From the NCBI GenBank assembly GCA_050184115.1, contig JBFXAQ010000001.1, forward strand, positions 1,002,304 through 1,066,303: a stretch of DNA of 64,000 bases, read 5' to 3'. How positions within the stretch are numbered: position 1 is the stretch's first letter; each line of letters opens with the position of its first letter. Below, in pieces: positions 2-55,776 of this stretch. A program made the position numbers and the translations under genes. The notes under the pieces are model-generated. The model was not told the origin of the DNA. It did no database searches and saw only the letters and a list, made by a program, of their open reading frames with translations. The stretch is from Gammaproteobacteria bacterium. GTDB lineage: Bacteria; Pseudomonadota; Gammaproteobacteria; Ga0077536.

Positions 2-709
2 GCCGTGCGTGGTCGTGACGCTGACGATTTCGACCAGGCCAACATTGCGGGGGTGGGGTGTTTCGCCCGCGCCGCGGTCGAGGTCATGTCGCGGCCGCGG
101 GTCGTACTGCTGTCATCGCTCGCCGCGAGCCGCCCCTGCCTCTCCGACTATGCTGCCAGTAAGCGCGCGGGTGAGGATGCACTCACCGCGGGTGCGGGGC
201 TGGAATGGGCGATCCTGCGCCCCCCCGCGGTCTATGGCCCCGGCGACCGCGAGATGCTGCCGCTGTTCACTGCCGTGCGGCACGGGCTGGCGCCGCGACT
301 CGGACCCCGAGGGCAACGCCTTGCGCTCCTGCACGTGGCCGATCTCGTCCGTGCCGTGCGGCTCGTGATCGAGCACTTCGAGGCTTGCCGCGGGCACACG
401 TTCGAGCTCGACGACGGTCATACCAAGGGCTACGACTGGAGCGAAATCGTCGCTCACGCGCGCGGTCGCCTGCCGGTTGCCCTGGTGCCCGTTCCGCGGC
501 TCGTGCTCGCCGCGATCGCGTGGGTCAACCTGCTGCTGGCGCGCGTGTTCGGTTACCTGCCCATGCTCACACCCGGCAAGGTCAACGAGCTTTCCGCTTC
601 CTGTTGGCTCTGCGATAATCAACCGCTCTCCGCGGCGACCGGTTGGCGCCCGCAAATCGCCCTGGGCGACGGCGTGAACGCCATGTTCGCGCCAACCACC
701 CACGAGTAG
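2..709 (+). CDS. NAD(P)-dependent epimerase/dehydratase, CerR-like ceramide reductase (5'-truncated at window edge)
   Basis: Frame open from position 2. Extended-SDR motifs YAASK (YxxxK) and ILRPPAVYGPGD, plus C-terminal PMLTPGKVNEL. Lies directly upstream of acp and spt, as CerR does in the Caulobacter ceramide locus. Confidence 0.75.
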   Translation, partial: AVRGRDADDFDQANIAGVGCFARAAVEVMSRPRVVLLSSLAASRPCLSDYAASKRAGEDALTAGAGLEWAILRPPAVYGPGDREMLPLFTAVRHGLAPRLGPRGQRLALLHVADLVRAVRLVIEHFEACRGHTFELDDGHTKGYDWSEIVAHARGRLPVALVPVPRLVLAAIAWVNLLLARVFGYLPMLTPGKVNELSASCWLCDNQPLSAATGWRPQIALGDGVNAMFAPTTHE

Positions 710-839
710 ACCGAGAGCCTGTGAAAAGAACTTCGCCACCGCTTCTCCCGCTATCGGGCGCCGGCAATGCCAGTAGCAGCGCGGGCGCCCGCGCGCGTCG
801 TCGGGTGTGGTGCCGGTCGGCCGCCGGGCAGACTCCCGC

Positions 840-1091
840 ATGGTGAAGCCGGCGCACGATGCCATCGTCAGGGACCTCGTCACGCTGCTGACGAAAACCC
901 TCGATCGACCGGCCCAGATGACCGCAGACACCGCCCTGATTGGCGATCTCGGACTCGAGTCGATCCAGGTGATCGAATACTTGTGTGAGGTCGAGGATCA
1001 CTTCGACCTCGCCATCGATGAAGACACCCTCGCCGACGTCAATACCGTCGGCGATCTCGCCGCGGTGGTCGCGCGCTTGCTTGCCGGGTGA
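840..1091 (+). CDS. Acyl carrier protein (83 aa), probably dedicated to Spt
   Basis: DLGLESIQVIE phosphopantetheine-serine motif, VEDHFDLAIDE and VNTVGDL; acidic and small. ATG at 840 preferred over the ORF-track start at 807. Confidence 0.9.
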   Translation: MVKPAHDAIVRDLVTLLTKTLDRPAQMTADTALIGDLGLESIQVIEYLCEVEDHFDLAIDEDTLADVNTVGDLAAVVARLLAG

Positions 1092-1352
1092 AACGCGGCG
1101 TCCACAGCAGCGGACGCGGATCGGGCATCAGGGACGAGCCTCCATGCGGCTGCGTCATCCGCTGGTGGCGCCGCGCGGCTTCTTCGCGCATGAACGGAGC
1201 GGCCCGCGCCGCGCACGTCCGGCCCGCCCGCGGTGGCGTTGTTCCACCGAACCCGACGAGAACCAGACCGTTTCGCGCGAGCGCTCGCATCGACGCTGCC
1301 GGCGCCGCGCGGCCATTTGCCCGCAGTCGAACGATTCCCAGGTGAAGCCGCC

Positions 1353-2552
1353 ATGAGCTTGTCCGAACGTTTCCGCTCCGCTGCCGCGACCCGCGACCTG
1401 CTCGCCGCGCTGCCGGTCAACCCCACCGATATCGTCATCGACGAGGTCCTGTCGGCGACCGAGGCGATGATCCGCGGTCGCCGTACCATCATGGCCGGGA
1501 CCAACAACTATCTCGGTCTGACTTTCGACGCGCAGTGCATCGAGGCCGGTCAACGGGCACTTGCCGAGTCCGGTACCGGCACCACGGGATCACGGATGGC
1601 CAATGGGACCTACCGTGCTCATCTCGAGCTCGAAGCCGAGCTCGCCGCGTTCTTCGGCATGCCTCACGCGATGGTCTTCTCGACCGGTTACGCCGCGAAC
1701 CTCGGCTCGCTGGTCGCACTGCTAGGTGAAGGCGACGCCGTATTGCTCGACTCCGAGGCCCATGCCAGCCTCTTCGACGGTTGCCGCATGAGCGGTGCTG
1801 ACATCTTCCGCTTCAAACACAACGACCCGGACGGACTGGCCAAGCGCCTGCGGCGCCTGGGCGAGCGTGCGCACGACGCCCTGATCGTGGTCGAGGGTTT
1901 GTACAGCATCCGCGGTGATTGCGCGCCGCTCACCGAGTACGCGGCGGTCAAAGCCGAACACGGCGGTTACCTGTTCGTCGACGAGGCACACTCGCTCGGC
2001 GTCTTCGGTGACGGGGGCCGCGGACTGGCCGAGGCCCAGGGTGTGCTCGAGCAGACCGACTTCGTGGTCGGCACGTTCAGCAAGAGCCTGGGTTCGATCG
2101 GCGGCTTCTGTGCCAGTCGCCACGCGGAACTCGGCCTGTTCCGTTACGCCAGTCGTCCCTACATCTTCACGGCTTCGCCCTGCCCGTCGGTCATCGCAAC
2201 CACGCGTGAGGCTCTGCGGCACGTTGCCAACCGTCCGGAACTGCGCACGCAGCTGTGGCGCAATGCGCAGCGTCTCTACGGCGCGCTCGAAGCGCTGGGA
2301 CTGCAGCTCGGCCCGCATGTCAGCCCGGTGGTCGGCGTCAGCTTTGCCGACCGCGCGATCGCCTTGCTCTGCTGGCAGAGCCTGCTCGACAGCGGCGTGT
2401 ACACCAACCTGATCCTGCCGCCGGCGGCGCCGGAGGGGGGCAGCCTCATTCGCGTCAGTGTCACCGCGGCGCACGACGATGCGCAGGTCGACGCCATCGT
2501 CGCCGCGTTCGACGACGCCGTACGTCGGCACCTGCCGGGCTGCGCGGCCTGA
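1353..2552 (+). CDS. spt: Serine palmitoyltransferase (PLP-dependent alpha-oxoamine synthase)
   Basis: GTNNYLGL, GSRMANGT, FSTGYAANLG, AHAS, DEAHS, GTFSKSLG (PLP lysine) and RPYIFTAS. Reads like Sphingomonas/Caulobacter Spt rather than BioF or Kbl. Adjacent to ACP and a CerR-like gene, with a bCerS-like gene in the locus. Confidence 0.85.
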   Translation: MSLSERFRSAAATRDLLAALPVNPTDIVIDEVLSATEAMIRGRRTIMAGTNNYLGLTFDAQCIEAGQRALAESGTGTTGSRMANGTYRAHLELEAELAAFFGMPHAMVFSTGYAANLGSLVALLGEGDAVLLDSEAHASLFDGCRMSGADIFRFKHNDPDGLAKRLRRLGERAHDALIVVEGLYSIRGDCAPLTEYAAVKAEHGGYLFVDEAHSLGVFGDGGRGLAEAQGVLEQTDFVVGTFSKSLGSIGGFCASRHAELGLFRYASRPYIFTASPCPSVIATTREALRHVANRPELRTQLWRNAQRLYGALEALGLQLGPHVSPVVGVSFADRAIALLCWQSLLDSGVYTNLILPPAAPEGGSLIRVSVTAAHDDAQVDAIVAAFDDAVRRHLPGCAA

Positions 2553-2553
2553 G

Positions 2554-3879
2554 TCATCCGCGCGTGTCGCGCCGCAGCGCGGCCCGCACCACCCACGCCG
2601 TCCCGCTCAGCATCACCAGGGACATCGTCAGCGCCGCGACGCCAGGACCGATGAGTCCCATCGACGGCGTCAACAGCACAAACAAGACGACGTAGAGCAG
2701 GGCCGCCAGCGCCTGCACACGCAGGCTGGCCCCGGCCCGCGAGAGGGTGTAGGCGGCCGGGCGCAGCGGCGCGGCGGCGAGTTCGACGGTGGCGGCGCCG
2801 ACCAGCCACGTCAGCAGTCCCGCGGCGGTGGCGTATTCCGCGCCGACGGTGACGCACAGGATGTCGGCGCCGAGCCAGGCCGCGAGGGCCGTGGCGAGCG
2901 CCGCCGGTAAGGCGAGGACGATGGCGACGGCCAGTGTCAGGCGTCCGAAACCGCGGTCGGCGCGGTGCTGTAAGCGTGCAAGGTCGGGGTAGATGGCCTG
3001 GCGTGCGAGCAGGGCGGGCTTGGCGACGACGTTGCCGAACTCGCGCGCGATGCGGAACAGCGCCGCGGCTTCCGCACCGAGCAGGCCACCCGCCAGGACC
3101 GTGCCCAGCGATTTCGGCACCACGTCGAGCGAGCTCTGCCAGTAGACGACGTGGAGGAAGCTCCAGATCCCGGGGTGGCGAGCGGCGGTGGCCCGCGGCG
3201 ACGCCCGGCCGCGCAGCAGTTCCCCACCGAGGCGGGACAGGGTGACCGACCAGCCGTAGCCCAGCATCATGACGTTCTGCAGAACCTGCGCGAGGGCCCA
3301 GACTGCCGCGATCGCCGGCACGGTGGGCGTGAACACCCAGGCGACCAGCGCCACGCCGACCAGTCGCGCACCGTTGCTCACGACCTGGGTCCGGGCGATC
3401 GCATCGAAGCGATCGAACACGCGCAAGGCGCCGCTCGCCGTACCCTGGCCGGAGGTCAGCAGCAGCAGGCTGTAGGCCATCGCGATCGGCGTGACCTCCG
3501 TCGACCACACACCGCACCAGGCCATCACCGGCGCACCTGCCACGCCGACCAGCGCACCCAGCAGGGCACTGCCGATATCGACCAGGGCGAGTGTGCGCAG
3601 GAGCTGCGCGAGGCCGCCGCGATCGCCATCGTCGTGGAGTGGCACGCCGTAGCGGATCACCGCTTCGAAGGGTTTGACGTTCATGACGCTGCGGATGATC
3701 AGCGTATACGCTTGGATCAGTGCCACTGTGCCGAAGTCGGCCGGGCCGAGCGCACGCGCGCTGAGCAGGGTGGCGGCGAGCGCCAGCACGCCGCCGGCGG
3801 CGCGCCCACCGAGCAGGGTCAGGAAGTTTCGCAACACGTTGCGCCACGCCGGCGTCGGCACGGGGACGGTCGCGTTCAT
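2554..3879 (-). CDS. Wzx/MATE-like flippase (polysaccharide biosynthesis protein family), about 441 aa
   Basis: Many hydrophobic segments; LSARALGPADFGTVAL N-terminal pattern; LLGAEAAALFRIA and IYPDLARL. ATG at 3879 overlaps the upstream stop (ATGA). Confidence 0.8.
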   Translation of the reverse strand: MNATVPVPTPAWRNVLRNFLTLLGGRAAGGVLALAATLLSARALGPADFGTVALIQAYTLIIRSVMNVKPFEAVIRYGVPLHDDGDRGGLAQLLRTLALVDIGSALLGALVGVAGAPVMAWCGVWSTEVTPIAMAYSLLLLTSGQGTASGALRVFDRFDAIARTQVVSNGARLVGVALVAWVFTPTVPAIAAVWALAQVLQNVMMLGYGWSVTLSRLGGELLRGRASPRATAARHPGIWSFLHVVYWQSSLDVVPKSLGTVLAGGLLGAEAAALFRIAREFGNVVAKPALLARQAIYPDLARLQHRADRGFGRLTLAVAIVLALPAALATALAAWLGADILCVTVGAEYATAAGLLTWLVGAATVELAAAPLRPAAYTLSRAGASLRVQALAALLYVVLFVLLTPSMGLIGPGVAALTMSLVMLSGTAWVVRAALRRDTRG

Positions 3880-4748
3880 CGAAATCCACCACGACGATAC
3901 AGGCGCCACAACACCGGCCAGCCGAACAGCAACGGGTGGCGGCGCTGCAGCGCGCTGGCCTCGACGCGTACGCCGCTGTGCCGCTCGACTTTCCACAGGA
4001 TGTAGTCGAGCGGCTCGTTGAAGGTGAAAGCGGCCTTGAACAGGCGGGCGACGGACAGCCACTTGCCGAGCGCGCGGCGCGCCCACCACGCACGCCGCGC
4101 CCGCGCGGGATCGGCCGCGCGGCGGCGCCAGTGCCCGGGCGTGGTTGCCGCGAGGCCGCACTCGGCGGCGAGCGCACCCGTCATGACCTCGAGCGCCGTG
4201 CCGTAGGCCGTCACGAGCTCGGCGCCGCGGGCGGGATCCTCGCTGCGCAACTCACAGCCATAGGTCAGAGTGAAGGCGGATCGCCACAGGTCCGTCGTCG
4301 TGAACGTCTCGCCGAGGAGCGGGACAGTTGCCTCGATCATGCGCCGCGCGGCGCTGCGCGCGGCAGCGTCGAGCCGGGTGCGCACACCATCGTCGCGCAC
4401 ATGCAGCACCATCACGGGTTGGGCGAAGCGCGCCCAGAAATAGGGATGGAAGCCGCGCGCGATGGCGCGTTCGAAGTGGCTCAAGGTGACGGTGGCGAAC
4501 TTCGCCGCTTCCGTACCGATGCCCGGGCCGGCGTGAAGGTGATAGACGTTCGGCGGCAGCAGGCGGTTGGCGATAGCCGCCAGCGGGGCGTGCAAGGCGG
4601 TGTAGTCGTCGAGCAGGACGTAGAAGTCGAGCACCGTGTCGCGCTTGCCACGCAGGTAGGAACCGTAGAGCACGACGGCGAGCACGCCGTCGCCGAAGCG
4701 CTCGCGGAGCAGGGTCGCGAAGCGTTGCGGCGCGTCGTCGTCAGCCAT
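3876..4748 (-). CDS. Nucleotidyltransferase-fold protein, Tam41/Mmp37-like putative (d)NMP-lipid transferase
   Basis: AVVLYGSYLRG...DFYVLLDD (GS plus DxD-type nucleotidyltransferase signature) and WARFAQP. Start overlaps the stop of the CDP-alcohol phosphotransferase by 8 nt. The specific family is inferred. Confidence 0.55.
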   Translation of the reverse strand: MADDDAPQRFATLLRERFGDGVLAVVLYGSYLRGKRDTVLDFYVLLDDYTALHAPLAAIANRLLPPNVYHLHAGPGIGTEAAKFATVTLSHFERAIARGFHPYFWARFAQPVMVLHVRDDGVRTRLDAAARSAARRMIEATVPLLGETFTTTDLWRSAFTLTYGCELRSEDPARGAELVTAYGTALEVMTGALAAECGLAATTPGHWRRRAADPARARRAWWARRALGKWLSVARLFKAAFTFNEPLDYILWKVERHSGVRVEASALQRRHPLLFGWPVLWRLYRRGGFR

Positions 4749-5925
4749 AGGCTTTGCGCGTGCCCGAGAAGCTGGCGTAGGCAGCGGGGTGGCGCGTCGC
4801 GGCATCGGGTTCGCTAAGCCACGATTCGAGGGGTGGTCCACCCAGGCGGACGAGTGCGGCCTGCGCCAGCCGTATGCCCATGATGGCCGTGCTGAGCGCG
4901 GTCCAACCTGCCACCGCGAGCAGGCCGAGGTCGGGACGGCCGACCATGGTCGGCAGGCTGAGCAGCACCAGGCAGGGATTGCGGCGCGCGGTGAACAAGC
5001 GGAAATAGGCGTCGAACGGCCGCCAGGCGAACAGGCTGCAGCGACCGAGGGCGTGGAACAGCGCTTCCAACAGGCGACCGCCGATGTAGCCGCCGACGAT
5101 CACCAGGTGCAGCACGGACAGCTCGATGCCGCCGACCGCCGGCAGACCCAGGCCCAGGCCCCACAACACGTACCAGTACGGTGGGTGGATGATGTCCATG
5201 CCGTGATCGAGGACGTGGCCGAGGGGGCTGCTCTGTACGGTGACACGCGCGAGCTTGCCGTCGACGGTGTCGAGCAGGGTCATGACCCAGCCGCTGAGCA
5301 GTCCTGCGACGTACTGCCCGTGATAGAACCAGGCGCACGAGCACAGCATGAGGACGACGCCGGTCAGGGTCACCATGTTGGGCGTCACGCCGGCCCGCGC
5401 GCACACGCCCACGAGATAGCGTGCCGGCCGCGGCCACCACCACTTGGTGACGAAATCGGTGATGCCCTTGTAGGCATTGCCGTACAGCAGTGATTCGAGT
5501 TCGTCACGGCGCGCGGCAGCGAGCGGTTCGAGCAGCGGTGGTGCGGTTTTGCGCAGGTGGCCGTCGAATGCTTCGAGCGCGGCCGGTTCCAGCAACACCA
5601 CGCCTGCCGGCAGTGTGTCGCTCGCCGGCCAGTTCGCCGCCACCACCTGCGCGGTCGCCGGTTCCAGCAGCGCTGCCGCAACCTGGCCGTCGGCGGGACA
5701 GGCCAGGGCCGCGCCGGGATGCGCGAGCAGGCCCTTGAACGTTCTGACTTCGAACAGGTAATCGGCGTGGATGAGCAGCACCTGGCTGGTGGTCGCGGGC
5801 AGTCTCGCGAGGTCGTCGAGGAGGGTGACACCGAGCCCACGAAGCTGGCGGGCGACACGCTCGCGCGCGTCCAGACCCCACAGTTCCAACGTGTTCGTAC
5901 CGATGATGCAGGCGGCGATCGTCAT
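4741..5925 (-). CDS. CDP-alcohol phosphatidyltransferase family protein with N-terminal soluble domain
   Basis: Complete signature DTVDGKLAR-x8-GHVLDHGMD (DxxDGxxAR...GxxxDxxxD), VTPNMVT, and membrane helices in the C-terminal half. Confidence 0.9.
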   Translation of the reverse strand: MTIAACIIGTNTLELWGLDARERVARQLRGLGVTLLDDLARLPATTSQVLLIHADYLFEVRTFKGLLAHPGAALACPADGQVAAALLEPATAQVVAANWPASDTLPAGVVLLEPAALEAFDGHLRKTAPPLLEPLAAARRDELESLLYGNAYKGITDFVTKWWWPRPARYLVGVCARAGVTPNMVTLTGVVLMLCSCAWFYHGQYVAGLLSGWVMTLLDTVDGKLARVTVQSSPLGHVLDHGMDIIHPPYWYVLWGLGLGLPAVGGIELSVLHLVIVGGYIGGRLLEALFHALGRCSLFAWRPFDAYFRLFTARRNPCLVLLSLPTMVGRPDLGLLAVAGWTALSTAIMGIRLAQAALVRLGGPPLESWLSEPDAATRHPAAYASFSGTRKAYG

Positions 5926-6010
5926 GCTATGCTGTTCGGCGTACAGGGTGAAAAAGCCAGCAATTATAGTGATTTAGTCGCGCCCGCGCCAAGCCGGCGC
6001 AGGGCACTCC

Positions 6011-6880
6011 ATGCGTTTCGTCCACTTGAGCGATCCCCATCTCAGCAGCCTCGCGGATTACCGTTACGCCGACGTTGCTGGCAAGCGCCGCCTCGGCATG
6101 CTGTCGTGGCATCGCCGCCGCCGCCGTCACCATCTGCGCGAGGTGCTCGACGCCCTGTGCGCCGCCGCGCTCGCCGAGCAGCCGGACCTCGTGCTCGTCA
6201 GCGGTGATTTCGTGCAGCTCGGCCTGGCCGGTGAGATCGCCGAGGCGCGGGCCTGGCTCGATGCCTTTGGTGCGGTGCCCGTGCGCATCGTGCCGGGCAA
6301 CCACGACTTCTACCAGCCGGACGCGCTCGCGCCCGCGTTGGCGGCCTGGGCGCCCTACCTCGGCCTCGCGGCGTCGGCCACGTCGGACGCCTTCCCGACC
6401 TGCCTCGAACGTGGTCCGTTGACGGTCATCGGGCTGTGCTCGGCGCAGCCGATGCCGTGGTGGTCCGCCGGCGGGGCGATCGGTGAGGCCCAGCTGCAAC
6501 GTCTCGACGGTCTGCTCGCGCGCAGTCGCGGCCGCTTGCGTTGCGTGATGCTGCACCACCCGCCGCAACCGGGGCAGTGCGCGCGGCGCAAGGCGCTCGC
6601 CGATGCGCACGTCCTCAGCCTGCTGCTCGAGCGCCACGCCGTTGAACTGGTCGTGCATGGTCACGTGCATCGTAACCGCGCCACCCGCCTCGGTCCGGTC
6701 ACGCGGGTCTTCGCGACAGCCTCCGCCTCCAATGCCGCGAGCCACGCACCCGCGTCCTACCGCGTGTTCGAATGCACGGCGGCGGGCGATGCGCGCTGGC
6801 AACTCGCCATGCGTCTGGTCTCCGTCGACCCCAGCGGCCGGGCGCGCGAAGTCGAGCGCGACAGTTGGACCGCGGGTTGA
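6011..6880 (+). CDS. Calcineurin-like metallophosphoesterase
   Basis: All five metal-binding motifs: SDPH, SGD, GNHD, LHHP, GHVH. No signal peptide evident. Confidence 0.9.
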   Translation: MRFVHLSDPHLSSLADYRYADVAGKRRLGMLSWHRRRRRHHLREVLDALCAAALAEQPDLVLVSGDFVQLGLAGEIAEARAWLDAFGAVPVRIVPGNHDFYQPDALAPALAAWAPYLGLAASATSDAFPTCLERGPLTVIGLCSAQPMPWWSAGGAIGEAQLQRLDGLLARSRGRLRCVMLHHPPQPGQCARRKALADAHVLSLLLERHAVELVVHGHVHRNRATRLGPVTRVFATASASNAASHAPASYRVFECTAAGDARWQLAMRLVSVDPSGRAREVERDSWTAG

Positions 6881-7939
6881 TCAGCCGAGACGTCGGATCG
6901 CGAGCACCGCCGCCGCCATCACCAGTATGGATGGCATGAGTGCTGTCAGCGCCGGGTCGAGCTGAAACAGCAGCGCGAGCTGCCCGGTGATGCGTTCGGC
7001 CAGGTAGAAGCCGATACCGATGACGCCGCCGACGACCGCGCGCAGCCCGGTCGAACGCGCGCGCACAGTCCCGGCAACCAGCGGCAGCCCGAGCAAGGCC
7101 ATGCCGAGCAGCGTCAGGGGCAGGCTCGCTTGTTGCCAGAAGCGCACCTCGTGCTCGCGGGTGTCGAGGCCCGCCCCGGCTGTTTCGTGCAGGTAGCGGT
7201 AGAGGTCGATCGGCGACAGGGCATGCGTCGGGCTGACCAGGGTCGAGATCTGATCGGGCGACAGGAAGCTCGCCCAGCGCAAGGTCTCGAGGTGACGGCC
7301 CGACACGGTCTCGCCGTCGATGATCCGTTCCTCGACGTCGTGCAACAACCAGGTGTGCGCGCCGAGGATGTCGGCGCGCACGGCAAGCAGCACGCGCGCG
7401 AGATGGTTGGCCTTGTCGACTTCGTAGATCTCGATGTCCGACGGGATGCGTCCGAACGCGACCTCGCCGACGCGAATGATGCGCTGGTCGCGCCGGCTCC
7501 AGAACTCCGCCCCGCCACGCGCCGTCTGTTCGAGCGTACGGGCGCGAAATTCCTGTGCCTGTCGTTCTGCCAGCGGGATGACGATGAACTGCAGGGTCAG
7601 GGCGAGCGCGACAAGGCCGCCGGCGATGGCGGCCAGGATGCCCCCGAGACGCCATCCCGACAGGCCGGCGGCCCGGATCGCCGTGAGCTCCTGGTGATTG
7701 GCGAGCAGGCCGAGCCCGAGCACCGAGCCGAGCAGCGTGCTGACGGGCAGCAGGTCGAGCAGGCGCGCCGGCGTCGTCAGGAGCATTACGGCGATGGCGT
7801 CGGCGGTGGTGAACGCGCCTTTGCCGACGTCCTCCAGTGCCTCGGCCAGGGCCAGGAAACTGAACAGGCTGAGCAGGATGGCCAGCGCGATGCCGGCGGC
7901 CTTGAGAAAATGCGCGGCAACGTAACGGGCAATCAGCAT
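6881..7939 (-). CDS. LptG-like (YjgP/YjgQ family) ABC permease paralogue
   Basis: MLIARYVAAHF start, PARLLDLLP, LANHQELTAIRAAGLS, a periplasmic beta-rich region, LSPIDLYRY and FWQQASLP. Start overlaps the lptF-like stop (TGATG). Confidence 0.85.
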   Translation of the reverse strand: MLIARYVAAHFLKAAGIALAILLSLFSFLALAEALEDVGKGAFTTADAIAVMLLTTPARLLDLLPVSTLLGSVLGLGLLANHQELTAIRAAGLSGWRLGGILAAIAGGLVALALTLQFIVIPLAERQAQEFRARTLEQTARGGAEFWSRRDQRIIRVGEVAFGRIPSDIEIYEVDKANHLARVLLAVRADILGAHTWLLHDVEERIIDGETVSGRHLETLRWASFLSPDQISTLVSPTHALSPIDLYRYLHETAGAGLDTREHEVRFWQQASLPLTLLGMALLGLPLVAGTVRARSTGLRAVVGGVIGIGFYLAERITGQLALLFQLDPALTALMPSILVMAAAVLAIRRLG

Positions 7940-8997
7940 CAGCGCAGACCGCCGCGTGCGCGTCGCCACCACGAGCCTAGAACGAGGGCGGCCGCCAGCA
8001 GGGCCGGCGCCCACCACAGGCCCGCCACCACCTGCTGTTCGACCCAGGTCCGATTGACGCCGAGCAGGTTGTAGTAGACCGCGTAGATGGCGACCGCCAG
8101 CGGCAGCCGCGCGAAGCGGCTCTCGCGTGGACGCTGATCGACCAGCATCAGCGCACAGGCAGCGAGCAACAGCGTCGACAAAGGCGTCGACAGGCGCCAG
8201 TGCAACTCGGCGCGATCGTCGTCATCGGGCGAGCCCAACAGTTGCAGCGTGGCGGCCGACTTGGTGCGATATTCGCGGTCGATAGGCCGTGTGGCGTCGA
8301 GCGACAAGGTCAGCTCGGCGAAGCGACCGAGCAGGTCGGGTGGGGCGTTGGCGACGAGAAACACGCTGGCCTCGTGCAGTATCAGGCGATGGGTGAGTGG
8401 TGTGGCGAAGGCGTCGAGCGTGGCGCGTGGGGCCGTGATGAGTTCGATGCCTTCAGACCCGCGGGTGCGAATGAACACGCCGCGCAGGGCGCCGCCATCA
8501 GCGCCGATGTGTTCGACGTAGACTGTACGAGCATCGTCTTCGTAGAGGTAGAAGCGCTGAGGCTTGATGCGATCGAGTTCGGATGCGCTCTCGGCTCGAT
8601 CCTTGAGCGCGAACAGGCGCTCGTAGGCCCACGGCCGGGCTTGCAGCGAGAGCACTGCGACCAGCGTCGCGAGCAGCGTACCGAGCAGCAGCAAGGGCCG
8701 GTGCAGGCGGCGGCGCGGTATGCCGCAGGCGCGCATGACGACCAGTTCGTTGTGCAGGTTGAGCCGCCCGCAACCGACGATGATGCCGAAGTAGAACGCC
8801 AGCGGCAGCAGGACTTCCAGCGCGATCACGGCCTTGTAGCCGGTCAGCTGCATGACCTCGGCAGCGTCGAGGAGCCCGCTGGCGGCGTCGGTGAGAAAGC
8901 GGGCCAGGTTGTAGGCGAGAAAGATCACCGTCAGTATGATGGCGACCGTCGCGGTGCTCGCGCCGATTTCGCGCATCAGGTATCGATCGATCAACAC
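7939..8997 (-). CDS. LptF-like (YjgP/YjgQ family) ABC permease paralogue
   Basis: GTG start giving (M)LIDRYLMREI; RLNLHNELVVMRACGI; AELHWRLSTPL; RPRESRF. Confidence 0.85.
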   Translation of the reverse strand: MLIDRYLMREIGASTATVAIILTVIFLAYNLARFLTDAASGLLDAAEVMQLTGYKAVIALEVLLPLAFYFGIIVGCGRLNLHNELVVMRACGIPRRRLHRPLLLLGTLLATLVAVLSLQARPWAYERLFALKDRAESASELDRIKPQRFYLYEDDARTVYVEHIGADGGALRGVFIRTRGSEGIELITAPRATLDAFATPLTHRLILHEASVFLVANAPPDLLGRFAELTLSLDATRPIDREYRTKSAATLQLLGSPDDDDRAELHWRLSTPLSTLLLAACALMLVDQRPRESRFARLPLAVAIYAVYYNLLGVNRTWVEQQVVAGLWWAPALLAAALVLGSWWRRARGGLR

Positions 8998-9030
8998 GGC
9001 AGAATGGCTGGCGATGAGGTGAGGGAGCCC

Positions 9031-9564
9031 GTGGGCAAAGCGTCCTATGATGGTCAGCGCACCCGTGCGGCGCAACTGCATGCGCGCCTCGTGCTGGCGC
9101 TCGTCGCGGCCCTGCTCGCACCGCGCGCCGGCGCCGCGGAGGCCGAGCCACCGCTGCGCGTGCGCGACGATACCGTGTTCATCCGCGCTCAACAGGCACG
9201 TCAGGCCGACGACGCATCAAGCCTGACCGTGAGCGGCGGGCTGTTCATGCGCAGCGGCGCGTGGACGGTGACCGCCGACCATGCCGTCATCAGCGGCCGC
9301 CTGCGCGACCCCGCGCGCATCGATGTCACCGGCGCGCCGGCGCGCATCCACGTCCAGGAAGGCGACGACGCCGAGGCATTCGAAGGCCAGAGCCAGCGTC
9401 TCGAGTTCGAACCGCGCGCCGAGGTCGTGCGCCTCGAGGGCGCGGCGCGCGTCGTCAAGGGCGGGCGCTCGGTCAGCAGCGAATCGATCAAGTACCTGCT
9501 CGATCGCGATACCTTTGCTGCCGGCACCGGCGGTCGCGTGCGGGTGGTGACGACGCCGCATTGA
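9031..9564 (+). CDS. LptA/OstA-like periplasmic beta-jellyroll protein
   Basis: C-terminal part of track ORF 8200..9564. GTG at 9031 follows a GAGG-GAG ribosome-binding sequence. Signal-peptide-like RLVLALVAALLAPRAGA; typical ITAD-like TVTADHAVI, LEGAARVVKGGRSVSSESIKYLLDRD and GRVRVV. Start is uncertain because it is only 33 nt from the divergent lptF-like start. Confidence 0.7.
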   Translation: MGKASYDGQRTRAAQLHARLVLALVAALLAPRAGAAEAEPPLRVRDDTVFIRAQQARQADDASSLTVSGGLFMRSGAWTVTADHAVISGRLRDPARIDVTGAPARIHVQEGDDAEAFEGQSQRLEFEPRAEVVRLEGAARVVKGGRSVSSESIKYLLDRDTFAAGTGGRVRVVTTPH

Positions 9565-9579
9565 GGCGTCGCGGCGGGC

Positions 9580-10338
9580 TCAGTTCGTGGCCGGTGTGCG
9601 TTGCCGCGCTGGTGGACACCAGCCGGCGACGATGCCGGCCGCGCGCTCGAGATCGGCGCGGTCGTCGATCTCGCCCCAACTGAGGCCGTCGATGGCGCAG
9701 GTGGTGACGATGTCCTCGCCTGCCAGGGTGTCGATTGCCGACAGGTACCACTGCTTGAGCCCACTGCCGTGGCGCATCATGAATTCGACCTGTTCGCGGA
9801 AGCGCTGCGCGCCATGGGCGTCGAAGTGCATCATGCCGATGGATTCGCCGGTGACGCGCTTGACGTCGAGTTGCTTGCCGACGCGGCGCAGGCGGCCATC
9901 CGCGACCACGACTTTCATGTCGTCCGCGTCGTAGCTCGGCTTGCTGTCGGTCACTAGCGTGATCGGCGCGCGCGCGCGGTCGTCGAGCAGGCGCTGCAGG
10001 ATCGCGGCCTCGAACAGCGTGTCGCCGTTGATGATGACGAAAGGCGCGGTCATCTCGTGGCGCGCGACCCAGCAGGTGCCGAGGTTGTCGCAGGCGGCGA
10101 AGAAGGGGTTGTAGAGCGCGCGGGCCGGTACGTCGTGCTGGCCCGCGACGATGGCATCGACGTAGTCGGCCCCGAAACCGGTCACCACCACCACCTCGTC
10201 GACCGCGCACTGGGCGATTTCGTGCAACTGCCATTCCAGCACCGCCCGTGCGCCCACCGCGAGCGCGGCCTTGGGGCGTTGTTCGGTCAAGGGCAATAGC
10301 CGCCGGCCCTGGCCGGCACTCAGGATGATTGCTTTCAT
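9580..10338 (-). CDS. Sugar-phosphate/phosphocholine-type cytidylyltransferase (NTP_transferase family)
   Basis: MKAIILSAGQGRRLLPLTEQRPK, INGDTLF, GESIG and WGEIDDRADL; LicC-like. In this locus it probably activates a head group. Confidence 0.8.
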   Translation of the reverse strand: MKAIILSAGQGRRLLPLTEQRPKAALAVGARAVLEWQLHEIAQCAVDEVVVVTGFGADYVDAIVAGQHDVPARALYNPFFAACDNLGTCWVARHEMTAPFVIINGDTLFEAAILQRLLDDRARAPITLVTDSKPSYDADDMKVVVADGRLRRVGKQLDVKRVTGESIGMMHFDAHGAQRFREQVEFMMRHGSGLKQWYLSAIDTLAGEDIVTTCAIDGLSWGEIDDRADLERAAGIVAGWCPPARQRTPATN

Positions 10339-10432
10339 GGTGGGGGACGGATTCCGCGAAAAAGCCGGCCCGGTGGCGCGGCGCGCGCGACTCTAACACG
10401 TTCGCGCGGGCGGTTCGACAGGTGGCGGTGAG

Positions 10433-11185
10433 TCACCGGCGCGCGGCGACCCGGCGGTTCCAGGCGGCGAGATTCTTCAGTGGGTCCTTGACGTAATGCG
10501 TCGCCTGCATGAGGCGCAGGATGCCGGCGTTGAACCAGGTGCCGACGGTGTCCATGGGGCGGTCGATGTCGATGAACAGTACGGCGCGGTACTCGGGCGT
10601 ATCGTTGCGCACCTCGTGTTCGTAGGTATCGTCGAAGATCACCGCCTCGCCTTCCCGCCAGTGGTAGATCTCGTCGTCGACGCGGATCCAGCAATGCTCG
10701 CGGTCGGCCGGGACGCGCAAGCCGAGGTGGCAACGGACCAGCGCGCGGGTCGGGCCGCGATGGGGCGGAATGTGATAGCCGGGCGCGAGGATCGAGAACC
10801 ACGCATTGAGCAGGCGCGGCAGGCTGGCGAGCAGGGCGGCGGTCTGGGGGCAGGCCGCGCAATTCTGCGCTACCGGCTGGCCGAAGATATAGAGCGCATA
10901 CGTCTTCCAGTGATCGCCCTTGGAGATCCGGTATTGGTCGGGCGAGATCTGGTGGAAGGCCGGGATGTCCTCGGGGTGAGTCCAGACCTGGTCGAACTCG
11001 CGACGTACACCCGGCCATGCCGCTTCGAGGCGCGGGACCCAGTCGAAGGTGTCGTTGGGCAGGACCGGGGCGGTGCCGATGAGCGAGTGGCGAGCCTGGA
11101 AATCGGTCACGGCGCGCAGGAACTGCTTGCCGGCGCGGTGAACCAGCGCGCGGCGCCAGCGGTAGAAAGCGGACGTGTCAGTCAT
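10433..11185 (-). CDS. Aspartyl/asparaginyl beta-hydroxylase family Fe(II)/2-oxoglutarate dioxygenase (LpxO-related)
   Basis: FSILAPGYHIPPHRGP, RCHLGL and FDDTYEHEVRN motifs. ATG at 11185 overlaps the upstream stop by 8 nt. Confidence 0.85.
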   Translation of the reverse strand: MTDTSAFYRWRRALVHRAGKQFLRAVTDFQARHSLIGTAPVLPNDTFDWVPRLEAAWPGVRREFDQVWTHPEDIPAFHQISPDQYRISKGDHWKTYALYIFGQPVAQNCAACPQTAALLASLPRLLNAWFSILAPGYHIPPHRGPTRALVRCHLGLRVPADREHCWIRVDDEIYHWREGEAVIFDDTYEHEVRNDTPEYRAVLFIDIDRPMDTVGTWFNAGILRLMQATHYVKDPLKNLAAWNRRVAARR

Positions 11186-11969
11186 GCGCCAGGATCCTCT
11201 CGGCAAGCGCGTGGTCGGCGGCCGAGTCGACGTCGACCGCGGCACGGGGTTCATCGATCGTGATGGCGGCGATCGCGGCGCCGGCGCGCGCCGACAGGCG
11301 GGCCAGGGCCTGCGCGCGGTCGAGGCGTCCGCCGAGGTAGCGCAGCAGGGTGCCGAAGCCGATCCCGTGCGCGATTCGCCAGGGTCGCTTGCGTTCGCGT
11401 TCGAGCGTGCGCCAGTAGGCGAGTGCGGTGAGCGCCCGCGGCGTGCGCAGCAGGAACAGGTTCGACCCGCAGCAGGCACCGTCGGCGAAGCGCAACAGGG
11501 TCCGTTGCGATTCCGGCCACGCCGCGTGGACGCGCGACCAGGGCACGAGGCCGATGACGACGTCCGCTGTGACCGCGGCCGCGCGCGTACAGAAGTCGTC
11601 GACGATGGCCGGGGTCAGCAGGGCGTGGTCGCCGGCGGTGAGCAACAGGGGAAAGCATTCGAGCGCGCTGGCGCCGACCATGGCGCTGGCCGAGGGACCG
11701 TCGGCGGGCGCCAGCCAGCGGTAATCGCCGGCCTCGAGCAGGCCACGCAGGCCGGCGTCGCCGGCGACGATGGCCGCCGCCGGCCCGACCACCACGCCGC
11801 CGGCGACGTGACGACTGGCGCGCAGCGCATCGAGCACCCTGGCCAGGCAGCTGCGGCCATGAACTTCCACCAGCACGCCGGCCGGCAGACCGTGGCTGCG
11901 CGCGAGTGCGTTACCGCCGGGACGCTCGCCGGCCAGGACCACCGCCCGCACCGATGGCGCGGCGCTCAT
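11178..11969 (-). CDS. MobA-like NTP transferase domain protein
   Basis: C-terminal part of track ORF 11178..13118: AVVLAGERPGG, LLTAGDHALL, GSNLF and AAVDVDSAADH. Confidence 0.75.
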   Translation of the reverse strand: MSAAPSVRAVVLAGERPGGNALARSHGLPAGVLVEVHGRSCLARVLDALRASRHVAGGVVVGPAAAIVAGDAGLRGLLEAGDYRWLAPADGPSASAMVGASALECFPLLLTAGDHALLTPAIVDDFCTRAAAVTADVVIGLVPWSRVHAAWPESQRTLLRFADGACCGSNLFLLRTPRALTALAYWRTLERERKRPWRIAHGIGFGTLLRYLGGRLDRAQALARLSARAGAAIAAITIDEPRAAVDVDSAADHALAERILAHD

Positions 11970-12055
11970 CCGTCGCCGTGCCGGCGGGGCGGTGCCGCGA
12001 CGGGAGCGTCGGGCAGGCCGGATCGGGAACGCGGGCACGAGCAGCGCACCGTCGT

Positions 12056-13198
12056 TCAGCCCAGGCTCTTGTCGTAGACCCGGTAGCGCTTGGTGACGTG
12101 GCCGCCGAGGGTCTCGATGATGTTCTTCATGGCCTCGTTCGATTCGAGGATCCACGACATCTCGACCTCTTCGAGGCCCTTGCGCAGGCCGGGGGCGCGC
12201 AGCGCCTCGACCACCGAGAGCGCGAGACCGGGTCCGTAGCGGGTGTTGTGCAGGCGGCGGCGCACACCCATCAGCGGGATGCGCGCGCTGCGCGGGTAAC
12301 CGAACTTGAGTCGCCGCAGGAGCTTGAGCCAGCCGCCGGGCCACAGTCGGCCGTCGAGATCGGCGATGCACTCGTTGACGTTCGGCAGCAGCACGATGAA
12401 GGCCACCGGTTCGCCCTTCATCTCCGCGATCTGGATGAAGTCGGGCGGGATGATCATCAGCATCTCGTGACCGATGGTGCGGAATTCGTGCGCGGTGAAT
12501 GGGACGAAGCCCCAGTTGTCGGCCCAGGCGTCGTTGAAGATGTCGCGCAGGATGTCGAGGTCGGCATCCTTGCGCCGCGGGTCCAGCGGGCGGATGGTGA
12601 CGTCGCGCTGCAGGCGTGCGTAGAGCGATCGCATCACCGGCGGCGGCTGGAAATCGGCCGGGATGAGGTAAGCGAACATGTCGGCGGCCTTGGTGTAGCC
12701 GAGCGTTTCGAGCGCCGGCCCGTAGAAGGGGCGCGCATGGGTCATCATGAAATACGGCGGCGTGTCGAAGCCCTCGACCAGCAGCCCCACTTCCTGGTTG
12801 ATGTTGAAGCCGAACGGTCCGCGCACGCGGCGCAAGCCGCGCGCGCGCAACCAATCCTCGGCGCTGCGTGTCAGCACGCCCAATACTTCGGCGTCGATAC
12901 CCTCGATGAAGCCGAAGAAACCGGTGTCGTCGGTGTGGCGTTCGAGGTGCAGGCGATCGACCTGGGCGGTGATGCGGCCGACCGCGCGGCCGTCGCGGTA
13001 GGCGACCCAGCCCTGCCAGTCGAGGTGCTCGAAGACCGGCTGCTTGGGTGCCAGGACCTCCTTCCGCTCCAGCAGCAGCGGCGGTACCCAGTGGGGATCG
13101 TCGCCGTAGATGGCCCACGGCACGCGCACGAAATCGTCGCGGGTACGGCGGTTGTCGACCGGGTGGAGGATGAGTCCGCCCGCGCGGTTCTGGGTCAT
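12056..13198 (-). CDS. GNAT-fold N-acyltransferase, bacterial ceramide synthase (bCerS)-like
   Basis: PWAIYGDDPHWVPPL, GFFGFIE, GLLVEGFDTPPYFMMTH, FNDAWADNWGFVPFT and EMSWILESN...KRYRVYDK match my recollection of the bCerS family. About 380 aa and in the spt locus. Confidence 0.8.
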   Translation of the reverse strand: MTQNRAGGLILHPVDNRRTRDDFVRVPWAIYGDDPHWVPPLLLERKEVLAPKQPVFEHLDWQGWVAYRDGRAVGRITAQVDRLHLERHTDDTGFFGFIEGIDAEVLGVLTRSAEDWLRARGLRRVRGPFGFNINQEVGLLVEGFDTPPYFMMTHARPFYGPALETLGYTKAADMFAYLIPADFQPPPVMRSLYARLQRDVTIRPLDPRRKDADLDILRDIFNDAWADNWGFVPFTAHEFRTIGHEMLMIIPPDFIQIAEMKGEPVAFIVLLPNVNECIADLDGRLWPGGWLKLLRRLKFGYPRSARIPLMGVRRRLHNTRYGPGLALSVVEALRAPGLRKGLEEVEMSWILESNEAMKNIIETLGGHVTKRYRVYDKSLG

Positions 13199-13325: not shown

Positions 13326-13772
13326 ATGAAGCCGAAAGTTGCGCAGGAATACGTCCAGGTGCAGGACCTCGAGTGGCAACCGTTCCCGGACGCCTTCTCC
13401 GAAGGTGGTATCCGCTGGAAGCTGCTGCACGTGTCGCCCGAGATGGGTGCGTGGACGGCTATCTTCGATTGCCCGGCGGGCTCGTCGTTCGCGCGGCACA
13501 TCCACGTAGGCCCTGGCGAGTACCTGCTGACCAAGGGCAAGATGGAGGTGCGCGGCGGTGTCGACGAGGGCGGCGCGACGGCGCTGGCGATGGGTTACGG
13601 CTACGAGTCCTGCAACGCCCGTCACGACAAGACCTACTTCCCCGTGCCGAGCGAGTTCTACATGACCTTCCTCGGCCCGCTGCAGTTCATCAACGAAGAC
13701 GGCAGCCCGGTAGCCGTGGTCGGCTGGGAACAGGCCCAGGACCTGTGGTCGGCACAAATCGGGGCGGCTTGA
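13326..13772 (+). CDS. dke1: Acetylacetone-cleaving beta-diketone dioxygenase (cupin)
   Basis: PFPDAFSEGGIRW, WTAIFDCPAGSSFARHIHVGPGEYLLTKGKMEVRGG and FYMTFLGPL closely resemble Acinetobacter Dke1 as I recall it. Three-His metal site (HIH plus RHD). Confidence 0.8.
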   Translation: MKPKVAQEYVQVQDLEWQPFPDAFSEGGIRWKLLHVSPEMGAWTAIFDCPAGSSFARHIHVGPGEYLLTKGKMEVRGGVDEGGATALAMGYGYESCNARHDKTYFPVPSEFYMTFLGPLQFINEDGSPVAVVGWEQAQDLWSAQIGAA

Positions 13773-13916: not shown

Positions 13917-14003
<87 letters not shown>

Positions 14004-42173: not shown

Positions 42174-42826
42174 AGCCACGCGAGAACATCCGCGACCTGT
42201 TCGATGCACGCCGTCGCGCCCCAGCGCGCGGGTTCGTCACCCGGCGCGAGGTAGCCGTAGAGGGCAACCAGCACCGCCATGCCGGCGGCCCGCGCGGCGA
42301 TGACGTCGCGTTCGGCGTCACCGACGTAGAGGCACGCCGCGGCCGGCACGCCAAGGGCCTCGGCTGCCGCCAGCAGCGGGTCGGGGTGCGGCTTGGCGCG
42401 CGGCGTGGTGTCGCCGCTGACGACACAGGCCGCGCGGCGATCGAGCGCGAGCGCGGCGAGCAGCGGCGTGGTCAGCCAGCCGGGCTTGTTGGTCACGATG
42501 CCCCACGCCAGGCCGCGCGCCTCGAGGGTGTCGAGCACCGCGGCCATGCCCGGGAACAGGCGCGACTCGACGGCGACTTCGGCGTGGTAGGCGTCCAGCA
42601 GGCGCTGGCGACGGGCTTCGAACTCCGCCGAGCCGGGTGCGTAGGCGTAGCCGAGCCGGACCAGCGCCGTGCTGCCGTGGGAGACGTGCGGACGGATGGT
42701 GGCGAAGGGCAGCGGAGCGAGGCCGTCGTCGGCGAGCACGCGGTTGAGGGCTCGGGCGAGGTCCGGCGCGGTATCGAGCAGGGTACCGTCGAGGTCGAAC
42801 AGGACCGCGCGGGACGAGGTCGTCAT
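42170..42826 (-). CDS. gph: Phosphoglycolate phosphatase (HAD family)
   Basis: LFDLDGTLLDT, VTNKP, KPHPDP, YVGDAERDV; coupled to ubiG. Confidence 0.88.
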   Translation of the reverse strand: MTTSSRAVLFDLDGTLLDTAPDLARALNRVLADDGLAPLPFATIRPHVSHGSTALVRLGYAYAPGSAEFEARRQRLLDAYHAEVAVESRLFPGMAAVLDTLEARGLAWGIVTNKPGWLTTPLLAALALDRRAACVVSGDTTPRAKPHPDPLLAAAEALGVPAAACLYVGDAERDVIAARAAGMAVLVALYGYLAPGDEPARWGATACIEQVADVLAWL

Positions 42827-43536: not shown

Positions 43537-43581
43537 GGCGCGGATGTTACCGGCCCGCCGCGCGGACGCAAGCCGGGGACT

Positions 43582-45252: not shown

Positions 45253-45303
45253 GCTAGCCTTGCTCCACGTACATGGTTCGCGGTGTTCCGGCGTACACGC
45301 TCA

Positions 45304-50256: not shown

Positions 50257-50364
50257 GAATTCCGTCTCCGCGCACGTCGTGGTGCGCCAGGTAAGCGTCG
50301 CCGCTGCGAGCGGCCGTGATGCCCGGGCCGCCGGTGACGGCCATGCTGATGCCTGTCTGCGTGC

Positions 50365-53492: not shown

Positions 53493-53572
53493 CCGCCGCT
53501 GAGGGCGGATAGCTCTTGGACCGGATGGGTTCCAGGGGATTCAGGGAGTTAGGGGGACAACGTAGATTGCTC

Positions 53573-55549: not shown

Positions 55550-55571
55550 GCGGGCACTCGACCCGTCGGCG

Positions 55572-55599
55572 GGGTGCACGGTTGCTGGGCCGTGCACCC
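55572..55599 (+). terminator. Hairpin after tpsB (terminator or processing site)
   Basis: Perfect 10-bp stem GGGTGCACGG-N8-CCGTGCACCC, 22 nt after the stop. No U-tract. Confidence 0.4.
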
Positions 55600-55670
55600 G
55601 CATGGTCACCGGGTGGTGCGTAGCACCGCTTTCGCAGGCGCGTGACATTCGCGAGGTAGTGGAAATCCGG

Positions 55671-55714
55671 TGTGAAGTGATTCACGGACCCGCCAACTAC
55701 CTGATAACTAAACT
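55671..55714 (+). promoter_or_regulatory. CRP-family binding site plus -10 element (class II CRP-type promoter) upstream of tpsA
   Basis: TGTGA-AGTGAT-TCACG (55671-55686) matches TGTGA-N6-TCACA at 9 of 10 positions. TAAACT at 55709-55714 puts the site centre at about -42. GGAGG ribosome-binding site at 55761-55765. Confidence 0.7.
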
Positions 55715-55776
55715 GGCCCGACTTCAGAAACGGGCGCGCGGCGCATCGAGTGCGCCAGCCGGAGGGTGTTGACGTC

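Follow-up and report, generated by a model that had tools for sequence, protein, structure and literature searches.

A Probable Gammaproteobacterial Version of the Caulobacter-Type Anionic Sphingolipid Synthesis and Export Locus, with a Linked LptA-like Gene

What lipid is made by the compact block of genes at the start of a 64-kb stretch of gammaproteobacterial DNA, and how would that lipid reach the outer membrane? The stretch, called the window here, belongs to contig JBFXAQ010000001.1, and the block consists of fourteen genes within window positions 2-13198 together with an upstream portion beyond the window edge, with a length of ~15 kb overall. We propose that the block is probably the gammaproteobacterial version of a Caulobacter-type locus for the synthesis and export of anionic sphingolipids. 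In Caulobacter crescentus, the locus CC_1152-CC_1168 (CCNA_01210-01226) makes ceramide phosphoglycerate (CPG) and ceramide diphosphoglycerate (CPG2) (Olea-Ozuna 2024, PMC11324152; Zik 2022, PMC9393093; Dhakephalkar 2025, PMC12275187; Uchendu 2026 preprint).

The sequence viewed comprises the window and the 8.6 kb upstream of it (record L001), 72.6 kb in total. Genes were called from the G+C bias at third codon positions and cross-checked against Pfam, NCBIfam, and the public record's own calls, all of which agree; every gene listed in an earlier note on this DNA was recovered in this way. The G+C content is ~69% and uniform, and false frames therefore crowd the raw lists of open reading frames (ORFs). 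Start and stop codons overlap between the flippase and Tam41-like genes, the Tam41-like and CDP-alcohol phosphotransferase genes, lptF and lptG (1 nt), and the hydroxylase and MobA-like genes (8 nt), which indicates operons, and the bCerS gene is the first of a bCerS-nucleotidyltransferase-hydroxylase-cpgD operon. A scan with Rfam found no regulatory RNA within the locus, and no NCBIfam model fits bCerS, the Tam41-like protein, the flippase, or the MobA-like transferase. The related loci used for comparison are the 80 best-matching loci, with 39 considered "full" because they span aasR to bCerS (bCerS is present in these by selection). Gene order and orientation are conserved in the 39 full loci, and because the same genes recur in the same order and orientation in dozens of genomes, the gene set is not a product of chance.

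The ceramide assignment begins with spt (1353-2552, + strand). Its 399-residue product scores 577.3 bits on the NCBI serine palmitoyltransferase (SPT) equivalog NF047599, against a cut-off of 500, and falls below the cut-offs of other NCBIfam models (bioF, 315.6 versus 426; Kbl, 285 versus 460). Its matches in the Protein Data Bank (PDB) are SPT from S. wittichii (397 bits), S. paucimobilis (389 bits), and Sphingobacterium (263 bits), followed by Kbl (210 bits) and BioF (172 bits), and the pyridoxal phosphate-lysine motif GTFSKS is found at residues 240-245. The earlier note had taken a grouping of this aminotransferase with BioF or Kbl as the outcome that would tell against a sphingolipid; these scores place the enzyme with the SPTs instead. 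Membership of a family that also includes BioF, Kbl, HemA, and CqsA, all scoring significantly, does speak for an alternative in which there is no sphingolipid locus here and the product of this alpha-oxoamine synthase is instead a signalling ketone, a sulfonolipid, or an intermediate in the biotin or threonine pathway. We consider this highly improbable, with the Spt model being the only one passed, SPT structures leading every other family by ~180 bits or more, and a dedicated acyl carrier protein (ACP), an acyl-AMP ligase, a reductase, and a YghO-type acyltransferase all present and syntenic.

The dedicated ACP gene, acpR (840-1091, + strand; 83 residues, PF00550 at 43.6 bits), is directly upstream of spt, with an acyl-ACP synthetase-type gene nearby, and the candidate phosphopantetheine-attachment serine of AcpR is Ser41 within an ESI motif. 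The candidate ceramide reductase CerR is an NAD-dependent epimerase/short-chain dehydrogenase (PF01370) of 316 residues encoded between aasR and acpR; the 3' part of cerR occupies positions 2-709 (+ strand), and the first 241 nt of the gene precede the window. Together with those 241 nt, aasR occupies L001 6666-9357. It encodes a 582-residue acyl-AMP ligase that scores 743 bits on NF006624 (cut-off 600), its 3' end overlaps the start of cerR by 8 nt, and its position is the AasR slot of the published aasR-cerR-acpR-spt operon. At the other end of the locus, the bCerS-like GNAT-fold N-acyltransferase (12056-13198, - strand; 380 residues) has a weak GNAT match in Pfam, and a sequence-only search of the PDB with this protein returned nothing useful. 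It is, however, 48% identical to E. coli YghO over 371 of 380 residues (E = 3e-130).

YghO belongs to an E. coli locus, reached through a weak DNA match, with the order yghO-aasR-cerR-acpR-spt-lptG-lptF-...-yghQ that is present in BL21 and UTI89. The window proteins are 48% (YghO), 44% (AasR), 37% (CerR), 37% (AcpR), and 55% (Spt) identical to those of the E. coli locus, over their full length except for the ACP. The E. coli genes are listed as orthologs of CC_1154 (YghO) and CC_1165-CC_1162, and E. coli Spt, AasR, and AcpR have been assayed biochemically (Padilla-Gomez et al, 2022). Of the tested homologs of the window's Spt, the E. coli enzyme is the closest. The assignment of Spt, bCerS, and CerR to ceramide synthesis is therefore well supported by homology. 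By orthology to the tested enzymes, AasR would load a fatty acid onto the dedicated AcpR, and Spt would condense the acyl-AcpR with serine to give 3-oxosphinganine, which bCerS would N-acylate before CerR reduces the 3-keto group to yield dihydroceramide. In the E. coli locus (L082, NZ_OW967178.1, 768460-796713), spt sits between glcC/yghO and pitB.

If a ceramide is made, which head group does it carry? Five genes bear on this question. The first encodes a 290-residue Tam41-like nucleotidyltransferase (3876-4748, - strand), the counterpart of CpgC (CC_1161), which has no Pfam match of its own, although PF09139 is carried by many of its homologs among the matches listed. Its AlphaFold2 (AF2) model has a predicted local distance difference test score (pLDDT) of 88, and the top five Foldseek matches to the model are Tam41 structures, aligned over the full length (E = 6e-8 to 6.5e-7, template modelling score 0.51-0.63, 263-273 columns), with aminoglycoside nucleotidyltransferases far behind. 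The second is a CDP-alcohol phosphotransferase of 394 residues (4741-5925, - strand; PF01066), the counterpart of CpgA (CC_1159), with an exact D-x2-DG-x2-AR-x8-G-x3-D-x3-D motif at residues 219-244 preceded by a soluble, non-membrane N-terminal part of ~170 residues; among PDB structures it is closest to choline/ethanolamine phosphotransferases and phosphatidylinositol-phosphate synthases. The third, a COG1213/LicC-IMPCT-type cytidylyltransferase (9580-10338, - strand; 252 residues, PF12804 and PF00483), is the counterpart of CpgD (CC_1152); it matches the inositol-1-phosphate cytidylyltransferase (IMPCT) model over its full length, has PntC-type and LicC enzymes as its best PDB matches, and bears the motifs PKAA and INGD. 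The remaining two are a calcineurin-type metallophosphoesterase (6011-6880, + strand; 289 residues, PF00149 at 67 bits), the counterpart of CC_1158, and a MobA/CofC-like nucleotidyltransferase (11178-11969, - strand; 263 residues, PF12804, PDB 2DPW at E = 5e-14), the counterpart of CC_1153, which are present in 36 and 38 of the 39 full loci, respectively.

CC_1161, CC_1159, CC_1152, CC_1153, and CC_1158 of Caulobacter belong to the same five families (Olea-Ozuna 2024, PMC11324152, S1 Text), and Caulobacter genetics found these genes to be required for CPG and CPG2. CpgD is a CTP:phosphoglycerate cytidylyltransferase that yields CDP-glycerate, with IMPCT as its closest structure. The published identities of gammaproteobacterial head-group proteins to those of Caulobacter are 30-54%, including 50-54% to CpgD and 40-41% to CpgA. 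The same backbone could nonetheless carry another head group, with the cytidylyltransferase activating inositol phosphate, phosphocholine, phosphoethanolamine, or a phosphonate for transfer to ceramide or ceramide phosphate. The closest characterized relatives of the cytidylyltransferase do use inositol-1-phosphate, phosphocholine, and aminoethylphosphonate, the top PDB and NCBIfam matches of the transferase are choline/ethanolamine phosphotransferases and inositol-phosphate synthases, and the absence of a kinase gene, described below, would suit direct transfer onto the ceramide hydroxyl. We regard this alternative as unlikely. Caulobacter CpgD has the same family profile and the same top structure, yet makes CDP-glycerate; all five head-group families occur together as in Caulobacter; the published gammaproteobacterial counterparts resemble CpgD and CpgA at the identities given above; and the locus has no inositol-phosphate synthase or choline-related gene. 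Further, Pseudomonas plasmid pPNP1 (L083) has a sphingolipid cluster with a CpgB-like kinase, and its cytidylyltransferase and CDP-alcohol phosphotransferase share 48% and 44% identity, respectively, with those of the window.

For the CPG-type head group that we favor, the steps are those we infer from Caulobacter genetics and CpgD biochemistry. Ceramide would be phosphorylated by a kinase encoded outside the locus, and the Tam41-like enzyme would convert ceramide-1-phosphate to ceramide phosphoglycerate. The LicC/IMPCT-type cytidylyltransferase would supply CDP-glycerate, from which the CDP-alcohol phosphotransferase would add a second phosphoglycerate, with the MobA-like transferase and metallophosphoesterase presumably aiding these reactions.

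In the kinase for the first of these steps the locus departs from Caulobacter, in which the DAGK-type kinase CpgB yields ceramide-1-phosphate and is needed for every phosphorylated product. No CpgB-type (DAGK_cat/LCB5) kinase was found in the locus, the rest of the window, or the 8.6 kb upstream with Pfam scans, the record's calls, and six-frame tblastn with two CpgB-like queries from related loci; two ORFs outside the Pfam scans, one of 1687 residues at 45304-50364 and an open-ended one from 55708, were covered by tblastn. CpgB-like genes occur in four of the related loci (L046, L069, L072, and L074). Of the 39 full loci, 3 have such a gene, none of them in the window's clade. The earlier note's description of the locus as complete-looking consequently needs correction on two counts: aasR lies beyond the window edge, and the ceramide kinase is missing from the locus and from all 72.6 kb.

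The kinase may be encoded elsewhere in the genome, or another kinase may substitute for it. A rival proposal is that the first phosphorylation proceeds without a CpgB-type kinase, either with the housekeeping membrane diacylglycerol kinase DgkA phosphorylating ceramide or with the pathway of this clade being entered without free ceramide-1-phosphate. The rarity of CpgB-like genes among the full loci fits this proposal, as does a dgkA gene 4.5 kb upstream of aasR (3.4-4.8 kb in the window's clade), a linkage seen in 15 of the 39 full loci. E. coli DgkA phosphorylates ceramide in vitro, a reaction on which the classic ceramide assay is built. We nevertheless give the proposal a low probability. 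A conserved lexA-imuA-imuB cassette separates dgkA from the locus and the order dgkA-lexA-imuA-imuB is kept in the window's clade; because the linkage is part of a block that is syntenic in one clade, it is weak evidence. A cpgB-type gene may also sit elsewhere in the genome, of which 72.6 kb was viewed, and the Caulobacter locus is itself divided among several operons.

The backbone may be modified as well. A gene at 10433-11185 (- strand) encodes a 250-residue Fe(II)/2-oxoglutarate-type lipid acyl hydroxylase of the LpxO/OlsC family, matched over its full length by PF05118 (Asp/Arg beta-hydroxylase; 174.5 bits). It is below both equivalog cut-offs (OlsC, 212 versus 450; LpxO, 125 versus 500) and so is a family member belonging to neither named subfamily. 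It resembles OlsC, the ornithine-lipid acyl 2-hydroxylase, and LpxO, the lipid A 2-hydroxylase, in its full-length domain and in the location of its gene inside a membrane-lipid operon. It is present in 26 of the 39 full loci, and the pPNP1 copy is 46% identical. A role as a ceramide acyl 2-hydroxylase, with its substrate suggested by gene context, is a reasonable inference, and the dioxygenase would hydroxylate the acyl chain, most likely at C2 of the amide-linked fatty acid. The additional hydroxylation suggested in the earlier note thus stands as reasonable, given an OlsC/LpxO-family gene within the operon. In Caulobacter, ceramide hydroxylation depends on the unlinked DesA-type CC_0202 (Olea-Ozuna 2024, PMC11324152). 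Two other genes vary among the full loci. A GMC-family FAD oxidoreductase of 530-570 residues is found in 12 of 39 (for example, L069 4736-6334, L073 2071-3786, and L035 3379-4962), where it mostly replaces the Asp/Arg hydroxylase (nine loci have the GMC gene without the hydroxylase and three have both), and a HIT-family gene, the counterpart of CC_1157, is found in 16 of 39 but not in the window.

How would the finished lipid leave the inner membrane? Adjacent to spt, a 441-residue Wzx/MOP-type flippase (2554-3879, - strand) corresponds to CC_1166 in Caulobacter and to YghQ in E. coli. Its PF01943 score of 29.1 bits is barely over the cut-off of 28.2, and it is 26% identical over 418 residues to the flippase of the E. 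coli locus, with at least six hydrophobic segments. Two 352-residue permeases follow on the same strand, the LptG2-like protein at 6881-7939 and the LptF2-like protein at 7939-8997, both of which match PF03739 over their full length (207 and 206 bits, respectively). LptG scores 294 bits on TIGR04408 (cut-off 240) and LptF 277 bits on TIGR04407 (cut-off 230), and they are 30% and 29% identical to the copies in the E. coli locus. The locus contains no lptB or other ABC ATPase gene and no lptC, lptD, or lptE. Sphingolipid transport in Caulobacter requires LptF2 and LptG2, which the cell needs when it makes sphingolipid and which bind its single LptB.

Both permeases pass the LptF and LptG equivalog cut-offs, as expected if lptF, lptG, and the neighboring LptA-like gene were ordinary lipopolysaccharide (LPS) export genes around which sphingolipid genes had gathered. 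An F2/G2 clade and the canonical copies are not told apart by bit score: LptF scores 153 against the pPNP1 copy, 140 against P. aeruginosa LptF, 136 against the E. coli locus copy, and 71 against E. coli LptF, and is thus about equally similar to the P. aeruginosa protein and the E. coli locus copy, while the corresponding scores for LptG are 148, 127.5, 136, and 121.5. In S. wittichii, moreover, the locus-linked lptF-lptG pair is the only one in the genome. Passing the cut-offs does not mark a housekeeping copy, however, because the Prokaryotic Genome Annotation Pipeline (PGAP) also labels the second copies in E. coli as LptF and LptG. The otherwise intact clusters L069 and L074 have neither the pair nor the LptA-like gene, which would be unexpected for an essential exporter, and a pair travels with the sphingolipid cluster on the IncP plasmid pPNP1; these two observations suggest that lptF-lptG is an accessory module. 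The LptA-like protein is below the LptA cut-off and its gene is not beside lptC or lptB. The usual gammaproteobacterial arrangement is pepA-lptF-lptG, and it is absent here. Ordinary LPS export is accordingly an improbable explanation for these genes. With the LPS exporter LptB2FGC-LptA-LptDE, the locus has in common permeases of the LptF/LptG fold family and a beta-jellyroll of the LptA type, but it would presumably carry a two-chain anionic sphingolipid in place of lipid A.

Divergent from lptF is the gene for this LptA-like periplasmic beta-jellyroll protein (9031-9564, + strand; 177 residues). The protein matches PF03968, as do all 11 of its database homologs. On the LptA equivalog TIGR03002 the protein scores 57.4 bits, below the cut-off of 71.7, and it matches no LptC model in Pfam or NCBIfam (PF06835 family). 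The core of its AF2 model has a pLDDT of 85-93, and the first 19 Foldseek matches to the model are all LptA or LptH, with LptC appearing only near E = 1e-3. The protein is therefore LptA-like without being a standard LptA, having the fold yet scoring under the equivalog cut-off. Homologs in related loci start with cleavable-type signal peptides, for example MNKLFVILLTGILLVPQLALA followed by EDK. The N-terminal hydrophobic stretch spans 12 residues and is followed by an Ala-rich, cleavage-like site, in contrast to the membrane anchor of LptC2. The gene is divergent from lptF in 52 of the 57 related loci that have lptF and enough flanking sequence, with a median hit-to-hit distance of 126 bp, and is absent from loci without lptF and lptG.

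Among the papers that could be searched, none describes this gene. The lptC2 gene is seemingly confined to Caulobacter, and sphingolipid loci are reported to hold no duplicate of LptA or LptD/E in any organism (Uchendu 2026 preprint); likewise, no counterpart of CC_1168 was seen in beta- or gammaproteobacteria (Olea-Ozuna 2024, PMC11324152). The Caulobacter work names the crossing of the periplasm by sphingolipids as an unknown step. The linked LptA-like protein appears to be the sole point of the locus that looks new. In Azotobacter vinelandii DJ, the gene Avin_44320, which is not listed in the published S2 Table, is flanked by the orthologs of CpgD (Avin_44310) and LptF2 (Avin_44330) and so occupies the position of the LptA-like gene.

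We tentatively suggest, as a hypothesis somewhat short of probable, that the LptA-like protein is a dedicated periplasmic carrier ("LptA2") that works with LptF2, LptG2, and housekeeping LptB, and without LptC, to move anionic sphingolipids, and secondarily that most gammaproteobacterial loci begin the head group without a locus-encoded CpgB. The export steps that we infer would run as follows: the Wzx-type protein would flip the lipid across the inner membrane, LptF2 and LptG2 would extract it with power from housekeeping LptB, and the secreted LptA-like protein would hand it along a periplasmic Lpt bridge to the outer membrane.

How closely does the whole resemble the systems already described? 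Its likeness to Caulobacter, drawn by family and from published tables with the E. coli and pPNP1 loci serving as sequence bridges, extends to all three parts: AasR, CerR, AcpR, Spt, and bCerS in one locus for ceramide; the CpgC, CpgA, CpgD, CC_1153, and CC_1158 families for the head group; and a CC_1166-like Wzx-type flippase, LptF2, and LptG2 for export, with lptB in neither locus. The window locus lacks Caulobacter's CpgB kinase, HIT protein CC_1157, CC_1167, and membrane-anchored LptC2, and adds the secreted LptA-like protein and the OlsC/LpxO-type hydroxylase. This cluster has been published in gamma- and betaproteobacterial forms from A. vinelandii DJ, Pseudomonas luteola, and Nitrosomonas eutropha, whose proteins are 24-57% identical to those of Caulobacter (Olea-Ozuna 2024, PMC11324152, Fig 7 and S2 Table). 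These published clusters have the kinase and are reported to lack a flippase, a metallophosphoesterase, and an LptC counterpart, whereas in the window the kinase is missing but a flippase and a metallophosphoesterase are encoded; the related Pseudomonadales loci L046, L069, L072, and L074, from metagenome-assembled genomes (MAGs), are probably of the same type as the published clusters. The E. coli locus shares the five core ceramide genes, a second lptF-lptG pair, and the Wzx-type flippase, at 26-55% identity to the window proteins, but has no Tam41-like gene, CDP-alcohol transferase, cytidylyltransferase, phosphoesterase, hydroxylase, or LptA-like gene, and instead carries a YtfJ-family gene, YghR, YghS, and YghT, with the YtfJ-family gene at the position of the LptA-like gene. 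The window locus is thus a variant of a described kind, without a linked kinase, HIT protein, or LptC2, and with a linked LptA-like protein and an OlsC/LpxO-type hydroxylase.

Several points weigh against reading the locus as a Caulobacter-type synthesis and export system. The organism's sphingolipid is predicted from its genes; the 72.6 kb contains no CpgB-type kinase, although Caulobacter requires one for all phosphorylated products; orthology of the head-group proteins is drawn from family identity, shared context, and the published gammaproteobacterium-to-Caulobacter identities of 30-54%; the substrate of the cytidylyltransferase is not readable from its sequence; and lptF and lptG pass the housekeeping LptF/LptG cut-offs, with bit scores that leave the F2/G2 and canonical copies unseparated. 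Even so, the Caulobacter-type reading remains probable in our judgment. The earlier note had predicted a phospho-sphingolipid that is made and exported, possibly with a different head group. The first part, a ceramide made by Spt, bCerS, and CerR with a phosphate-linked head group and Lpt-like export, is the best-supported reading of the locus; a different head group has no support, as nothing points to one and the five families are those of Caulobacter.

The distribution of these genes is broad. In a pattern scan with one genome per species, the Tam41-like protein was found to be encoded in at least 585 species genomes. The best 80 matches are nearly all from uncultured Gammaproteobacteria, including Lysobacterales, Wenzhouxiangellaceae, Steroidobacteraceae, and Pseudomonadales, with the cultured Elongatibacter sediminis CH-27 (L063) among them, whose locus is the same except that it lacks the hydroxylase. 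Protein identity over the locus and its flanks is 69-96% to the nearest genome, a MAG with the label "Gammaproteobacteria bacterium", in agreement with the gammaproteobacterial host proposed in the earlier note. That note's implication that sphingolipid loci are rare outside the Alphaproteobacteria and Bacteroidota was overstated: clusters have been published for N. eutropha, A. vinelandii, and P. luteola, and 2493 of 5426 complete E. coli genomes (~46%) have an annotated spt, with second copies of lptF and lptG. Publication of the cluster from beta- and gammaproteobacteria, the occurrence of the Tam41-like gene in so many genomes, and the 39 full loci in the same order together mean that the locus is not new in kind. 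Mobile replicons also carry such genes. Plasmid pPNP1 of Pseudomonas sp. JS425 (NZ_CP073662.1, 60820-85668) has a near-complete sphingolipid cluster beside a class 1 integron with sul1, consisting of spt, acp, cerR, aasR, lptF, lptG, and genes for a CpgB-like kinase, Tam41-like protein, phosphoesterase, hydroxylase, CDP-alcohol transferase, and LicC-like transferase, while its bCerS gene is interrupted by an IS5 element. Matches to the Tam41-like protein were also found on 13 Roseomonas replicons and on three further plasmids, one each from Pseudomonas, Diaphorobacter, and Qipengyuania.

What surrounds the locus? Upstream of the window, dgkA, an isocitrate-dehydrogenase-family gene, lexA, and imuA-like and imuB-like genes (L001 1749-6297) adjoin aasR. 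Beyond bCerS are a ChrR-type cupin, tRNA-Leu, RNase R, rlmB, rpsF, and dnaB, and the other window genes that were scanned are housekeeping genes and a two-partner secretion system. The cupin (PF12973; 148 residues, 13326-13772, + strand) is divergent from bCerS, is far more conserved in relatives than the locus proteins (77-96% versus 45-80% identity), and is present solely in the clade that has both flanks in common. The tRNA-Leu(CAG) gene (13917-14003, - strand) lies between the cupin and RNase R genes, ~0.7 kb past the end of the locus. Recent insertion of an island at this tRNA gene was considered and rejected, given the uniform G+C content and the same flanking genes around the locus in related genomes. 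Further along, at 42823-50364 (- strand), an S-adenosylmethionine (SAM) methyltransferase gene directly follows one for a 572-residue FGE-sulfatase-domain protein, a layout that recalls ovothiol/ergothioneine synthases, with the 1687-residue ORF (45304-50364) upstream of both. The two-partner secretion pair (53513-63999, + strand) comprises an ShlB/FhaC-type transporter gene (53513-55549) and an ORF of more than 2760 codons that runs out of the window.

The Caulobacter-type anionic sphingolipid pathway would thus be common in uncultured Gammaproteobacteria from soil, sludge, and marine environments, inherited as a compact block. A wider range of bacteria may then be expected to have non-LPS anionic lipids in their outer membranes, a matter of relevance to how sensitive such cells are to polymyxin and how robust their envelope is. 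The absence of the kinase and the presence of an OlsC/LpxO-type hydroxylase point to variations in the pathway, and the linked LptA-like gene offers a concrete candidate for the periplasmic step of bacterial sphingolipid export.

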